From assembly GCA_040901675.1 (NCBI GenBank), contig JBBDYJ010000014.1, positions 39,305 through 103,304 of the forward strand: a stretch of 64,000 nt of DNA, in the 5' to 3' direction. Position numbers and translations under genes: made by a program. The notes below the pieces were generated by a model that saw only the letters and a list, made by a program, of their open reading frames with translations, did no database searches and was not told where the DNA came from. The DNA is from Pirellulales bacterium. GTDB lineage: Bacteria > Planctomycetota > Planctomycetia > Pirellulales > JAICIG01. Numbering within the stretch: position 1 is the stretch's first letter; every line of letters starts with the position of its first letter. Shown in pieces: positions 46,494 to 48,925 of this stretch.

Positions 46494-46560
46494 TGGGATT
46501 CTAAGGGGACATTCTACTTTCCTGGGATTCTAAGGGGACATTTTACTTTGCTGAAGGATG
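46494..46560. repeat. REP-like element: two 30-bp direct repeats (GGGATTCTAAGGGGACATTYTACTTT) ending in a 10-bp-stem palindrome AAGGGGACAT...ATGTCCCCTT
   Basis: Read directly off the sequence; sits between the low-GC gene and the transposase. Confidence 0.7.
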
Positions 46561-46779
46561 TCCCCTTTGTTTGGTCGTCCTGTAGAAACTGCGCGGGGGT
46601 AAAAAGACACCCATATTGTTGCTACTGCTGCGGGGCGGTTCAACTCCGTCGGACTGGTACTTGGTGCAACTCGGCGGGTGGAGCGCCGGAGAGTTCCCTG
46701 TCCGGCCGACGCGGGCGCTTTCACGGCGCGGATCCGTCGACCCTGCCACGATCCGCTGCCTGTCAGACAGGCGGCTCCG

Positions 46780-47982
46780 TCAGGTGAACGCCTGGCGGGC
46801 GTGCTCGACGCCTTGGAACCAATGCTTGCCGGCACGCGAGGCGGCCTCGCCCATCCGACCCGCCTGGCCAACTGCCCGGTGAAACCAGCGGCCGAACTGG
46901 GCCACGCTTTCCACCCAAGTAGCAGCGGCCACCTGCAGCCGCTCGAGAATCGGCGCCAGATTCGCCGGGATCGCGCCCCGCTTGCCCAACCGCACCTGAC
47001 GGCCTGTCCAATCCAGCAGCCGCAGATAGTCGTCCAGCGCCACCGGCAAGAAGCCGCGGTCGGACGCCCGCAAACCCAAGGCCGCCGGGCTGCGAGCCGA
47101 TCCGTTCTTCGCCGGGCTGCGTTCGTCCATCGGCATCCGGCAAAGCCAGGCGTCGTTGGGGGCGCCTGTCGGCGAGACGCGTTTCTTATTCTGCCGCCGG
47201 TTGGGACGCTTGTCTGATGAGCCCTTTCGGCGATCCTGCAATGCCAGCCGCGCCTGGCGGGCCGTGATCCGCTCGTAGGCCGACGTGTAGCGCGACTGTT
47301 CCGGCGTGCTGGCCAGGCCGGCGCGGATCGGATTCAAGTCGACGTACACGCTGCAGGCCAAAATGGCCCCTTCGTCCAAGAGGGCCTGGCACTTGAAGCG
47401 CCCCTCGAAGAAACGGCCGCGGCACTGGTCCTCGCGGTTGGCGCGGCGGGCGATCGGCTCGCACAGCGCCCGCATGAACCAAGAGAGGCTGGCCAGCCGC
47501 TTGCGCCGCTCTTGGCAGGCCTCTGGATCGGCGACCAGCGTTTTCCACTCATGCTCCAGCGGCTCGCAGGCGGAGCCGTCGCTTTCTTTGCGGCCCGGGC
47601 AGAGCCGCCACCAGCGCCGGCCGATTTGTTCATCGCTCCAGCCTTCGACCACGTCGGGCCGGATACGCAAAACTACGTGTAAGTGGTTGCCCATCACGCT
47701 GAACCCGCAGACATCAACGGCGAAGATGGCCGCCAGCTTTTCGAGGCGGCGCTGGATCCAGCCTCTGCGGTGCTCGAAATCCTTGCCCGTCGCGGCGTCG
47801 CGGCCGCAGAGGAAGGCCTGCCGCACGCAGCGGGCCATGCAGTGATACATGCCCACTTCGCCTTCTGCCACGATATCCCGCCGCGCATAGGCCGGCATGA
47901 TCGTTCTCCCAACGGAATCGCCTGTCCCGCTTTTCCCGGTAGGAGCATAGGCGGTTGACCGCCAGCCGTCAAACAGAATCAT
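46780..47982 (-). CDS. HUH Y1 transposase (IS200-like / REP-associated tyrosine transposase-like)
   Basis: HUH motif GNHLHVVL and catalytic-Tyr motif SVYVDLNPIRAGL. Confidence 0.75.
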   Translation of the reverse strand: MILFDGWRSTAYAPTGKSGTGDSVGRTIMPAYARRDIVAEGEVGMYHCMARCVRQAFLCGRDAATGKDFEHRRGWIQRRLEKLAAIFAVDVCGFSVMGNHLHVVLRIRPDVVEGWSDEQIGRRWWRLCPGRKESDGSACEPLEHEWKTLVADPEACQERRKRLASLSWFMRALCEPIARRANREDQCRGRFFEGRFKCQALLDEGAILACSVYVDLNPIRAGLASTPEQSRYTSAYERITARQARLALQDRRKGSSDKRPNRRQNKKRVSPTGAPNDAWLCRMPMDERSPAKNGSARSPAALGLRASDRGFLPVALDDYLRLLDWTGRQVRLGKRGAIPANLAPILERLQVAAATWVESVAQFGRWFHRAVGQAGRMGEAASRAGKHWFQGVEHARQAFT

Positions 47983-47990
47983 GGGTGTCT

Positions 47991-48332
47991 CTAATCGCTA
48001 TAGATACGCAAAACTACGTGTAAGTGGTTGCCCATCACACTGAACCCGCAGACATCGACGGCGAAGATGGCCGCCAGCTTTTCGAGGCGGCGTTGGATCC
48101 AGCCTCTGCGGTGCTCGAAGTCCTTGCCCGACACGGCATCGCGCCCGCAGAGGAAGGCCTGCCGCACGCAGCGGGCCATGCAGTGGTACATGCCCACTTC
48201 GCCTTCCGCCACAATATCCCGCCGCGCATAGGCCGGCATGATGGTTCTCCCAACGGAATCGCGAGTCCCGGCCGCAGCATAGGCGGTCAAGGGCCAGCCG
48301 TCAATAATTATGGGTGTCTTTGAATTTGCCAC
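47991..48332 (-). pseudogene. Truncated 5' copy (about 110 codons) of the transposase gene
   Basis: More than 90% nt identity to 47641-47982; ends RIYSD after the HUH motif. Confidence 0.7.
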
Positions 48333-48766
48333 TCATGCTCCAGCGGCTCGCAGGCGGAGCCGTCGCTTTCTTTGCGGCCCGGGCAGAGCCGCCACCAGCG
48401 CCGGCCGATTTGTTCATCGCTCCAGCCTTCGACCACGTCGGGCCGGATACGCAAAACTACGTGTAAGTGGTTGCCCATCACGCTGAACCCGCAGACATCA
48501 ACGGCGAAGATGGCCGCCAGCTTTTCGAGGCGGCGCTGGATCCAGCCTCTGCGGTGCTCGAAATCCTTGCCCGTCGCGGCGTCGCGGCCGCAGAGGAAGG
48601 CCTGCCGCACGCAGCGGGCCATGCAGTGATACATGCCCACTTCGCCTTCTGCCACGATATCCCGCCGCGCATAGGCCGGCATGATCGTTCTCCCAACGGA
48701 ATCGCCTGTCCCGCTTTTCCCGGTAGGAGCATAGGCGGTTGACCGCCAGCCGTCAAACAGAATCAT
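48308..48766 (-). pseudogene. Truncated 5' copy (about 145 codons) of the transposase gene
   Basis: Near-identical to the 5' 440 nt of the 46780-47982 gene. Confidence 0.7.
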
Positions 48767-48925
48767 GGGTGTCTCTAATCGCTTCTGCGGATCGGCAAGT
48801 GACGCGGCGACGTAGCTCCTCCGGCACTGAGGCGTCTTGAACGTTCAGCGATGCTTGGCAGATTCCGCGCACTGGAACATAATGGCGGCCCTGCGTATAG
48901 GTTTCCGCACTCCGTGGAGTCAGCA

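Follow-up and report, generated by a model that had tools for sequence, protein, structure and literature searches.

The window, i.e. the whole 64-kb stretch of DNA analysed here, harbors on its minus strand a full-length element (A) that encodes a Y1 transposase and, upstream of it, two partial copies of its 5' end (B and C); a GGGGACAT repeat and a lower-GC open reading frame lie on the 3' side of A. The features are as follows (TIR, terminal inverted repeat):

46494..46570, no strand assigned: GGGGACAT repeat, two units of 29 bp (46494-46551), then an inverted arm GGGGACAT/ATGTCCCC that reaches to about 46570
~46596..47999, minus strand: full-length element A, a TIR-bounded insertion sequence of ~1404 bp encoding the Y1 transposase
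46596..46625, plus strand: 3' TIR of A, with its core at 46605-46614
46780..47898, minus strand: transposase gene, 372 aa; the frame stays open upstream to 47982
47944..47972 (A), 48276-48304 (B) and 48728-48756 (C), minus strand: promoter-like TTGACG-17-TATGCT, a consensus match only
47970..47999, minus strand: 5' TIR of A, with its core at 47981-47990 and a putative nick after 47999
48000..48002, no strand assigned: filler bases ATA between B and the terminus of A
48003..48328, minus strand: fragment B, 326 nt, 5' terminus intact, ending after codon 79, from a putative diverged paralogue
48329..48783, minus strand: fragment C, 455 nt, 5' terminus intact, ending inside the open reading frame, A-type
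48308-48766, minus strand: remnant reading frame of C, 152 aa

The predicted ends of A were placed using the inverted core AGACACCCAT, the positions at which identity between A and C stops (47999 and 48783, respectively) and the finding that in related stacks of terminal fragments the terminus lies 10-14 nt beyond the core. The decamer ATGGGTGTCT/AGACACCCAT was described by a first-pass annotation of this DNA as an inverted pair bracketing the gene, which is what we find: it occurs exactly four times in the window (46605-46614 on the minus strand, 47981-47990, 48310-48319 and 48765-48774), each time at an element terminus and nowhere else. A and C share 9 nt outside AGACACCCAT (AGCGATTAG), indicating that the nick would lie at least 9 nt beyond the decamer. 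The 3' TIR of A is partly conserved at locus L020 (CTGGGTGCCT), and relatives from Planctomycetota and Gammaproteobacteria have a conserved core of the form RMCAYCCA at their ends, with TIRs that are ~20-28 nt long and non-palindromic. A weak GGCGG..CCGCC stem is present near the 5' end of A, without a conserved version in B. The pentamer CGCAG flanks the array on both sides and was considered as a target-site duplication, but was rejected as such because no consistent duplication is seen at L006, L007 and L016. The promoter previously assigned to each partial copy was recovered, as a consensus match, in all three copies (6 promoter-like sites found versus 0.5 expected). An Rfam search of the region 45.5-49.3 kb gave no match.

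The minus-strand open reading frame at 46780-47982 (400 aa) contains NHLH as its HUH motif together with YVDLNPIRAGL, the two motifs noted at first pass. More than 5700 homologues align only from residue 29 of this frame onwards, at MPAYARR, with alignments covering 93% of the 400 residues; since the homologues begin at this residue, the true translation start is probably the ATG at 47898, giving a protein of 372 aa. In the numbering of the 372-aa protein, used from here on, NHLH occupies residues 71-74, and N71, H72, H74, Y185, D187, L188, N189 and P190 are invariant in 19 diverse members; in a set of 53 members, N71 and H74 are invariant and H72 is conserved in at least 90%. Y185, the single catalytic-type tyrosine and likewise invariant, lies in helix 176-187 of the AlphaFold2 model (pLDDT 81.7). 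When this model was compared with the PDB using Foldseek, the best 29 matches were all Y1 transposases (4er8, 2xm3, 2ec2, 2a6o, 2vju, 2f4f and related entries), with a probability of ~1.0 for nearly all 29 and target TM-scores mostly of 0.50-0.64. The best match was 4er8_A, the E. coli TnpA_REP (target TM-score 0.64), and TnpA of ISDra2, IS608 and IS200 were also found; the resemblance concerns the N-terminal domain of the model. Judged from model and motifs, the enzyme is an HUH Y1 tyrosine transposase of class 2 (RAYT-like). Sequence profiles recognised it poorly: no Pfam family, Y1_Tnp included, matched at E <= 0.01, probably because an insertion splitting the core breaks the Y1_Tnp profile, and the NCBIfam model REP_Tyr_transpos scored 26.3 bits, below its cut-off of 80. 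A PDB sequence search returned spurious matches only, and a helicase domain was not found in Pfam, in the alignments or in the model.

By its YVDLNP motif, insertion and tail the transposase appears to fit subclass 2.3 of TnpA_Y1, for which the available part of the description (Quentin, Siguier, Chandler and Fichant 2018, PMC6006769) gives the motif set NHYH / WE / YVDLNP, ~55 inserted aa that separate beta3 from alphaC, and an extended C-terminal tail that has two parts and bears a TS motif. The window protein shares YVDLNP with this set, and in its model ~58 residues separate strand 72-79 from helix 138-156; T205 is invariant within FTSAYERI, and the tail spans residues 230-372. The 'WE' motif is found as FWEGRF in most relatives and appears as FFEGRF in the window protein, which also carries NHLH where NHYH is reported. 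The same portion of the source describes subclass 2.3 as lacking REP-like flanking structures, leaves the element ends undefined and reports a distribution in Chromatiales and Alteromonadales (PMC6006769). The present family likewise has several copies per genome and no flanking REP hairpins, but its host here is a Pirellulales-like planctomycete, it belongs to a clade of thousands of metagenomic proteins, and it has TIRs and stacked terminal fragments, both absent from the description as available (PMC6006769). Homologues from Alteromonadales (Shewanella, Pseudoalteromonas) are ~40% identical to the transposase, which supports a relationship with subclass 2.3.

The TIR-flanked layout is that of the TIRtrons of Di Nocera et al. 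2013 (PMC3733652), in which a RAYT-like gene is flanked by TIRs instead of REPs, as is the case here with the AGACACCCAT core at both ends; TIRYT genes are plentiful in the planctomycete R. baltica (PMC3733652). Most described TIRYT proteins belong to subclass 2.1 and have HTH/DnaA-like tails, which differ from the tail seen here, and their TIRs share GGGGWSAS, whereas the core of the present element is AGACACCCAT (RMCAYCCA across relatives).

GGGGWSAS is relevant also to the GGGGACAT palindrome, which matches it at 7 of 8 positions and resembles the TIR consensus of other TIRYT genes (PMC3733652). The palindrome lies ~25 nt outside element A, on one side only; as single-stranded DNA, its folding exceeds that of shuffled sequences by a modest margin only (z = -2.1). 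At L019, a 3' fragment of the element is directly adjoined by a related palindrome whose arms measure 31 bp, and a 12-nt core has one further match, L025, among 104 loci. The palindrome was considered as a REP or target of the element and rejected as unproven, given its position outside the TIR, its occurrence beside only one other fragment (L019) and the resemblance of its motif to that of another TIRYT group. The REP-like palindrome of the first-pass annotation is real as an inverted repeat downstream of the gene, whereas the REP character ascribed to it is not borne out, as it carries a different motif, lies outside the element and recurs beside a single other fragment. Recombination between REP-type sites, offered there as one origin of the array, is unsupported; the flanks are non-palindromic TIRs and not REP hairpins. 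The adjoining lower-GC gene was correctly noted: the open reading frame at 45624-46493 has a GC content of 49-57%, compared to 65-70% in the surroundings, and gave no match in Pfam; the opposite flank of the array is the Imm17/PPDK side.

Similar reservations apply to the label RAYT/IS200-like for the transposase. The Y1 and RAYT-like part of this label holds, as indicated by the Y---NP motif and the best fold match, and E. coli TnpA_REP and its REPtron also have inverted flanking repeats; a REP-associated RAYT it is not. RAYTs are single-copy, domesticated genes accompanied by REP hairpins with a GTAG head, whereas here the gene is multi-copy, the ends form no hairpins and fragment B brings a second lineage into the window. 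Related genomes contain separate multi-copy elements, 1.4-1.55 kb in size and bounded by TIRs; single MAGs hold 3-4 copies that are 80-98% identical, with sharp ends and TIRs, and many metagenome contigs consist of an element-sized sequence only, all of which argues for a mobile element. It is a multi-copy insertion sequence rather than a REP-associated single-copy RAYT. An exact-sequence look-up of the 400-aa and 372-aa proteins found no record. The nearest relative in the scanned genome contigs, which do not include the source genome, is the Pirellulales MAG LejiaB_66_9, and it contains fragments only.

Fragment C adjoins B without a gap, and both are located upstream of A in head-to-tail orientation; the filler between B and A has counterparts of comparable size (1-4 nt) between stacked units at L089. 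When aligned with 47545-47999, C is identical at 455 of 455 positions, with an abrupt loss of identity on both sides, while B and 47662-47999 align with 300 matches, 23 mismatches and 18 gap columns (93% identity to A). The two staggered head-to-tail partial copies seen at first pass are therefore present, with estimated lengths (~340 and ~440 bp) close to those determined here. In the coding part of B, 11 of 237 nt differ from A, yet only 2 of 79 amino acids do. Such mostly synonymous differences suggest that B stems from a functional sister lineage and not from a decayed A, i.e. that it derives from a diverged paralogue and would have been added in trans. An old copy of A made in situ was considered as the source of B and rejected on account of the mostly synonymous differences and of the outer fragment C being identical to A.

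The 100% identity of A and C over 455 bp, merely 329 bp apart, raises the question of a wrongly resolved repeat graph of several copies, including a loop through B, all the more so as close relatives do break assemblies, leaving element-sized contigs and fragments at contig ends. We consider such an artefact very unlikely, since the junctions C/B and B/A are unique sequences that must exist in the reads, and since a like architecture is present in independent assemblies (complete isolate replicons, several MAGs and metagenome contigs).

Judged from the sequences, stacking of end fragments is common across the family, and this is the new point of the present work. Nineteen loci from metagenomes, MAGs and complete isolate replicons were read by eye. 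In 5' stacks, which pile up outside the 5' end, each unit has the outer terminus as its exact start and breaks off at a variable inner position: all 67 extra units at the 19 loci begin with the element's terminal sequence, and their lengths range from 8 to 105 nt (median 17). The longer units include the conserved core motif, whereas 39 of the 67 are <=20 nt and many do not contain it. In 18 of 19 loci, the distance from the innermost unit to the ATG downstream of it is 63-162 nt, and at L008 nine short units of 8-13 nt precede the full terminus. Mirror stacks, in which the units have a variable inner start and finish at the outer terminus, are found at 3' ends (L089, L026, L088, L005, L104). 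Repeated 12-mers were detected in 23 of the 66 regions at 5' ends and in 20 of the 54 at 3' ends, versus 28 of 311 control windows (Fisher p ~5e-7), a crude statistic in that it counts repeated 12-mers and includes a small number of control windows twice. Stacks are specific to a locus: one is present at L004 and none at L001 and L003 of the same genome, which argues that stacks are not carried along by the element, and at L004 the stacked unit begins at the very boundary obtained from copy comparison. Their presence in complete isolate replicons argues against an assembly artefact for the stacks as well. Arrays with units of equal length (53 nt x4 at L045, 17 nt x5 at L036) may owe their growth to ordinary slippage once a first event had taken place.

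Selection provides one possible reading of these arrays, in which stacked termini are kept as transposase-binding sites, as promoters or as sources of truncated N-terminal peptides (113 and 152 aa, HUH without the tyrosine) that would damp transposition. In B and C alike, a promoter-like site is retained and the N-terminal frame stays open, and longer units contain the conserved core motif. We find a selected regulatory array improbable to a high degree, given the predominance of units of <=20 nt, the many units devoid of the core, the differences between arrays of copies within one genome and the irregular lengths, which fit accident better than selection.

On balance, we favor the view that the window contains one intact TIR-bounded insertion sequence of the subclass 2.3 type and that the partial copies are by-products of its enzyme acting at the 5' terminus. 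The data show the anatomy of the locus, the family to which the enzyme belongs, and the stacks' recurrence and polarity; nick, extension and resealing are proposed from them, as are the position of the nick, the nicked strand and the covalent link, all deduced from the scars. The transposase would nick the top strand ~11 nt outside the ACACCCA core and, in accordance with HUH chemistry, would stay covalently attached to the element's 5' phosphate. A host polymerase would then extend the free 3'-OH of the flank, recopying the terminus inward and displacing the protein-capped strand, until the extended 3'-OH attacks the phosphotyrosine bond and the strand is resealed. Replication would yield one daughter with 'flank + [terminus 1..n] + full element', repeated rounds would build a staircase outside the terminus, and the same sequence of events on the opposite strand would produce the mirror stack at the 3' end. 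That the terminus and not the flank is duplicated is predicted by a 5'-linked nick with a free flank 3'-OH, a prediction that rests on established HUH chemistry. In these terms, C would be a copy made in cis by an unusually long extension (455 nt, identical to A), and B the 5' strand of another, diverged but functional copy that was displaced with its enzyme cap and inserted at the same nick; B requires this extra step in trans, which counts against nick, extension and resealing. The abortive HUH-enzyme events suggested at first pass fit with terminal-fragment stacks being widespread in the family. Among close relatives (A/C, B, L018, L020, L021), the 9-11 nt adjoining the core on its outer side vary strongly, which is unexpected if they were a faithfully copied part of the element and thus argues against the proposed mechanism.

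Classical nested insertion with subsequent recombination is another way in which the long fragments of the window can arise. In such a scenario, a B-type copy inserts in direct orientation at position 455 of an A-type copy, an A-type copy inserts into the B-type copy at position 326, and homologous recombination of the newly inserted copy with the remaining 3' part of the first copy deletes the intervening DNA, so that C, B and a full copy remain. This scheme reproduces the order seen and the descent of B from another lineage, the family is multi-copy within genomes, direct homology of >900 bp would recombine readily, and 3' fragments exist too (L019, L096). We nevertheless regard nested self-insertion as unlikely: three events are required, all in direct orientation and leaving no target duplication, just one inverted fragment near a full copy is found (L032), and neither the stacks of up to ten terminus-anchored units of 8-20 nt (L008, L024, L089, L036) nor the mirror-image 3' stacks can reasonably be accounted for.

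IS200/IS605 elements (IS608, ISDra2) share the Y1 HUH fold, and in their chemistry the 5'-phosphotyrosine conserves the bond energy for rejoining; they have subterminal hairpins, asymmetric ends, Y---Q and no TIRs, in contrast to the TIRs and Y---NP found here, and we know of no report of terminal staircases among them. In IS91/ISCR and Helitrons, some copies keep the initiation end intact and vary at the far end, which is attributed to premature or missed termination of strand-displacement synthesis, and head-to-tail arrangements occur. The copies described here likewise have one intact end, a variable other end and a head-to-tail order. IS91/ISCR and Helitrons, however, use Y2 or helicase-fused enzymes and have asymmetric ori/ter ends, whereas the present enzyme has one tyrosine and no helicase, and the present element has symmetric TIRs with mirror scars at both ends. 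In the literature searched on TIRYT/TIRtron, on Y1/tyrosine transposases and on tandem/abortive HUH events, terminal staircases were not found described; most subscription journals and ISfinder lay outside this coverage.

The family of the enzyme is known but unstudied, and the copies in the window look like an unusually long example of an end scar that is family-wide. For annotation, staircases and truncated 5' copies are best treated as footprints of this insertion-sequence family and not as separate genes. To our knowledge, the REP-associated E. coli enzyme alone has been studied biochemically among class-2 Y1 HUH proteins. These proteins (RAYT, TIRYT, subclass 2.1-2.3) occur in about one quarter of the bacterial species that Quentin et al. 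2018 sampled (PMC6006769). The scars predict, from sequence, the element ends, a nick 10-14 nt outside the RMCAYCCA core, the nicked strand, the 5' polarity of the covalent link and the symmetry of the two ends. Together with the stacks, B and C suggest that the enzyme is able to link the terminus of an element with 3' ends unrelated to it, which would provide a route to rearrangements and yields truncated, promoter-bearing gene fragments. More tentatively, it is possible, though rather doubtful, that the staircases record a reaction undescribed for any transposon, in which a TIR-bounded Y1 HUH transposase nicks opposite strands at the two ends, both 5' ends of the element are capped and the 3'-OHs of the flanks prime strand-displacement synthesis inward. 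If true, this would be a double-ended replicative 'copy-out' pathway, distinct from the peel-and-paste of IS200/IS605 and the rolling-circle of IS91/Helitron, and the stacked fragments, including those of 326 nt and 455 nt, would be its abortive or trans-joined products.

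The transposase element of the window (A, approximately 46596-47999, minus strand) is preceded by two 5'-end fragments of such elements (B and C), arrayed head to tail. Along the reading direction of the gene, the flank is followed by C, B, three filler bases and the full copy A; at every junction the upstream piece breaks off at some arbitrary point in its interior, and the next piece begins with its 5' terminus intact. The features are as follows:

45624-46493, minus strand: neighbouring ORF of 289 aa, 49-57% GC versus 65-70%
46494-46570: REP-like palindrome, a 29-bp tandem pair plus an inverted arm, ahead of the low-GC ORF
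46605-46614: inverted copy of the decamer ATGGGTGTCT/AGACACCCAT; the others lie at 47981, 48310 and 48765 (four in the whole 64 kb)
46780-47982, minus strand: transposase ORF of 400 aa with NHLH and YVDLNPIRAGL
48003-48328: fragment B, 326 nt; its alignment to 47662-47999 has 300 matching, 23 mismatched and 18 gapped columns
48329-48783: fragment C, identical to 47545-47999 at 455/455 positions

The match between C and A breaks off sharply on both sides, and the three non-inverted decamers mark the outer ends of A, B and C, one each. The features described in the first-pass annotation are borne out here: the ORF listing returned the gene with its HUH and YVDLNPIRAGL motifs, the inverted decamer brackets it, alignment recovered both staggered partial copies, the promoter was carried along with them (a promoter-like TTGACG-17-TATGCT site is kept in A, B and C) and the adjoining gene is indeed lower in GC. 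That 289-aa ORF has no family match; on the other flank, 48851-49141 (plus strand) encodes a small membrane protein in which an Imm17 immunity domain was recognised (E = 8e-11), and the flanks may represent a horizontally acquired islet of the toxin/immunity type.

More than 5700 database proteins matched the transposase ORF, with a typical length of 350-380 aa, and because these homologues align from ORF residue 29, translation likely starts at the ATG at 47898 to give a product of 372 aa. A Pfam search of the transposase matched no family, and the NCBIfam RAYT model scored 26 bits, far under its cut-off of 80. In alignments of 19 and 53 family members, the residues of the HUH motif and the YVDLNP tyrosine were invariant or nearly so; proteins from Shewanella, Pseudoalteromonas and Catenovulum are approximately 36-41% identical to that of the window. 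In an alignment-based AlphaFold2 model (mean pLDDT 81.7), the best PDB matches of the N-terminal domain were all Y1 transposases, first E. coli TnpA_REP (4er8_A) and next the ISDra2, IS608 and IS200 enzymes, while the C-terminal helical domain had no match in the PDB structure comparison. The gene had initially been called a RAYT/IS200-like HUH transposase; motifs and fold uphold a Y1 HUH enzyme with TnpA_REP as its top match, but not membership of the REPtrons (RAYT genes with REP hairpins) or of IS200/IS605.

Three MAGs carry 3-4 gene copies each, and in two of them the copies are 80-98% identical and sharply bounded at 1.4-1.55 kb. Their ends are inverted repeats: one MAG has CAAT(T/A)GGTGCCACCCACCTTTTGTTGA at either end, another has ..CAGACACCCAnCCTTTGCT / AAGACATCCATCCT. 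The core of these terminal inverted repeats (TIRs), approximately RMCAYCCA, was found again at the ends of relatives in Planctomycetota and Gammaproteobacteria. Many gene-bearing metagenome contigs are just as long as the element itself, which is what a repeat that interrupts assembly would produce. The family is a discrete mobile element with TIRs. Its layout is that of the TIRtrons, RAYT-like transposase genes with TIRs (Di Nocera et al., PMC3733652), whose TIR consensus GGGGWSAS differs from the motif found here; with TIRs at its ends and this layout, the element was rejected as a REPtron, and the layout likewise spoke against IS200/IS605. Quentin et al. (PMC6006769) describe subclass 2.3 of TnpA_Y1 as multi-copy, without REP-like flanks and present in Chromatiales and Alteromonadales. 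The family's motif set (NHxH, FWEGRF, YVDLNP, TS) corresponds to that subclass in the main: YVDLNP agrees exactly, while the window protein has NHLH where NHYH is reported and FFEGRF where most relatives have FWEGRF. The long tail also corresponds, as does an insertion of approximately 58 residues that separates beta3 from alphaC. The element is a new member of these known kinds, with an enzyme that fits subclass 2.3 and a TIRtron layout.

The REP-like palindrome noted downstream of the gene is present; it lies approximately 25 nt outside the 3' TIR and has another motif, GGGGACAT, which agrees at 7/8 positions with GGGGWSAS, the consensus of other TIRYT-type TIRs (PMC3733652). No second Y1 gene was found in the 64-kb window. 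We treat the palindrome as a separate repeat family with a putative link to the element. Its kin at the related locus L019 (2916-2995) is a perfect palindrome with 31-bp arms (AAAGGGGACATTCTAAGGGACATTCTACTTT...), which adjoins a 3' fragment of a Y1 element and on its other side truncates an ORF that, by eye, resembles IS110-family transposases at their N-terminus; this palindrome may represent either a MITE or the joint left by a recombination event. Other repeats were also observed. A second REP-like hairpin family, CTGGGGCA-N12-TGCCCCAG followed by CCACCC, has three copies in the window, all on the plus strand (17950-17977, 57864-57891 and 57933-57960; approximately 0.05 expected by chance), and a near-identical hairpin lies in L018 (approximately 739-768), 28 nt past a solo 5' fragment of the element. 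The L018 contig also opens (1-75) on a tandem array of 16-nt units (GAAGGGGGGATGGGGT/C) that vary a little from one to the next; this array could be a staircase belonging to some other type of element. In L060 (4344-4868), a related element is closely followed by approximately fifteen tandem 34-nt units, each with the hairpin TTCCCGCCTGCGCGGGAA, a repeat of another kind than the terminal staircases.

Across 104 related loci, end regions were scored for repeated 12-mers spanning at least 24 nt, with windows at least 500 nt from the element as controls. Such repeats occurred in 23/66 5' end regions and 20/54 3' end regions versus 28/311 control windows (Fisher p approximately 5e-7 for each end class). 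Read directly, they are pieces that open with the terminal nucleotides of the element, stop at variable positions and lie outside the true terminus. In L008 the full GGCCAGTTGGTGCCACCCACC is preceded by nine units of 8-13 nt (GGCCAGTT...), and L024, L036 and L089 have at least eight short units each; longer ones are found in L004 (31 and 37 nt), in the Shewanella locus L014 (a single unit of 105 nt) and in L082, where a fragment of at least approximately 110 nt runs off the contig start and reaches 116 nt into the ORF, together with two short units. In a parsed set of 19 loci we counted 67 units of median length 17 nt (39/67 at most 20 nt, 5/67 of 61-105 nt), the innermost lying 63-162 nt upstream of the ATG in 18/19 loci. 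The 3' ends are the mirror image, with units that end at the outer terminus and start at variable inner positions (L089, L026, L088, L005, L104). Stacks are locus-specific, being present at L004 and absent from L001 and L003 of the same genome, and the unit start at L004 is the element boundary set by copy comparison. The closest related MAG has a solo 5' fragment of 230 nt (L018) and one truncated at approximately 536 nt (L017). The 326- and 455-nt fragments of the window are the long tail of this length distribution. An assembly artefact at the window locus is unlikely given its unique junctions and the recurrence of the architecture in independent assemblies; cultured isolates (Catenovulum, Pseudoalteromonas, Saccharobesus) likewise carry stacks in their complete replicons, so that metagenome assembly is not the source of the stacks. 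A selected regulatory array is also unlikely, since most units are too short for a binding site and the arrays vary from copy to copy. Plain slippage probably amplified some equal-length units (L045, L036), but does not account for anchoring at both termini. In the literature that could be searched, no description turned up of the staircases, of their mirror symmetry or of what they imply for the site and polarity of the nick.

Three further arrangements were seen. In L004 (4086-4510) the 3' end carries a duplicate of the element's final 186 nt, and the second copy ends in a short forward 5'-type terminus (GAGTTTGCAGACACCCAGCCTTT) instead of the 3' TIR; here too an exact 5' terminus is joined to an arbitrary 3' end. 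In L103, a complete Pseudoalteromonas replicon, the element and a stacked 5' unit lie between two direct copies of approximately 110 bp (1195-1300 and 2683-2790, approximately 85% identical), which may reflect either a target that is repeated in the genome or a long duplication. The L020 contig, from the closest relative (amino-acid identity 91%), begins with 137 nt of flank and the first 24 nt of the element (1-161), and this stretch recurs 2.18 kb downstream at 2181-2341 with 98% identity, pointing to a larger tandem unit or a circularly assembled contig.

Every junction of the stacks consists of an arbitrary 3' end and an exact 5' terminus, with the terminus duplicated and the flank not. 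HUH enzymes cut single-stranded DNA, hold the 5' phosphate on a tyrosine and leave the 3'-OH free; the bond energy is kept, so that any 3'-OH can reseal the break, a chemistry established for IS608, ISDra2, relaxases and Rep proteins. We infer a nick-extend-reseal mechanism: the top strand would be nicked just outside the left terminus, a polymerase would lengthen the flank 3'-OH by n nucleotides, and the extended end would reseal onto the protein-capped 5' end. This would yield exactly 'flank + [1..n] + element' on one strand, to be fixed by the next replication, and the bottom-strand equivalent at the right TIR would give the mirror-image stack. A 3'-linked tyrosine recombinase would leave no primer, and with a DDE enzyme the 3'-OH stays on the transposon end, so that the sequence duplicated by extension would be the flank. 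A median unit this short would fit a poorly processive repair polymerase (e.g. Pol I) displacing a 5'-blocked strand. Judged by the unit starts in L024, L089, L008 and L054, the nick would fall 10-14 nt from the core, on its outer side. In A and C the 9 nt beyond AGACACCCAT are the same (AGCGATTAG), and B has its own (CAAATTCAA); in each of the three copies the nick would thus lie 11 nt outside ACACCCA. The 9-11 nt between this putative nick and the core differ strongly among otherwise close copies (window 47991-47999 and 48320-48328; L018, L020, L021), the variants being AGCGATTAG, CAAATTCAA, GGACTCAA, AAGTTGA and CCAAGAAG; faithful copying of those bases as part of the element would leave this variability unexplained.

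C is identical to A and is compatible with an origin in cis, by an extension of exceptional length. B was ruled out as a copy of A, since its 237-nt coding part has 11 nucleotide differences but only 2/79 amino acids differ; this signature of coding differences marks B as a separately evolving, functional paralogue. In the simplest order with new units added at the functional nick, flank|C|A would have formed in cis, the displaced, enzyme-capped 5' strand of a B-type copy would have broken after 326 nt, and this strand would have been joined between the 3' end of C and the capped terminus of A with the three filler bases. Fillers of 1-4 nt between units, as in the window, are found in L089. 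Nested self-insertions followed by homologous recombination reproduce the window structure, but we consider them improbable, as they need three direct-orientation events and cannot explain the short anchored staircases. An alternative is trans resealing between nicked copies at different loci; if this is true, the array would be a rearrangement breakpoint.
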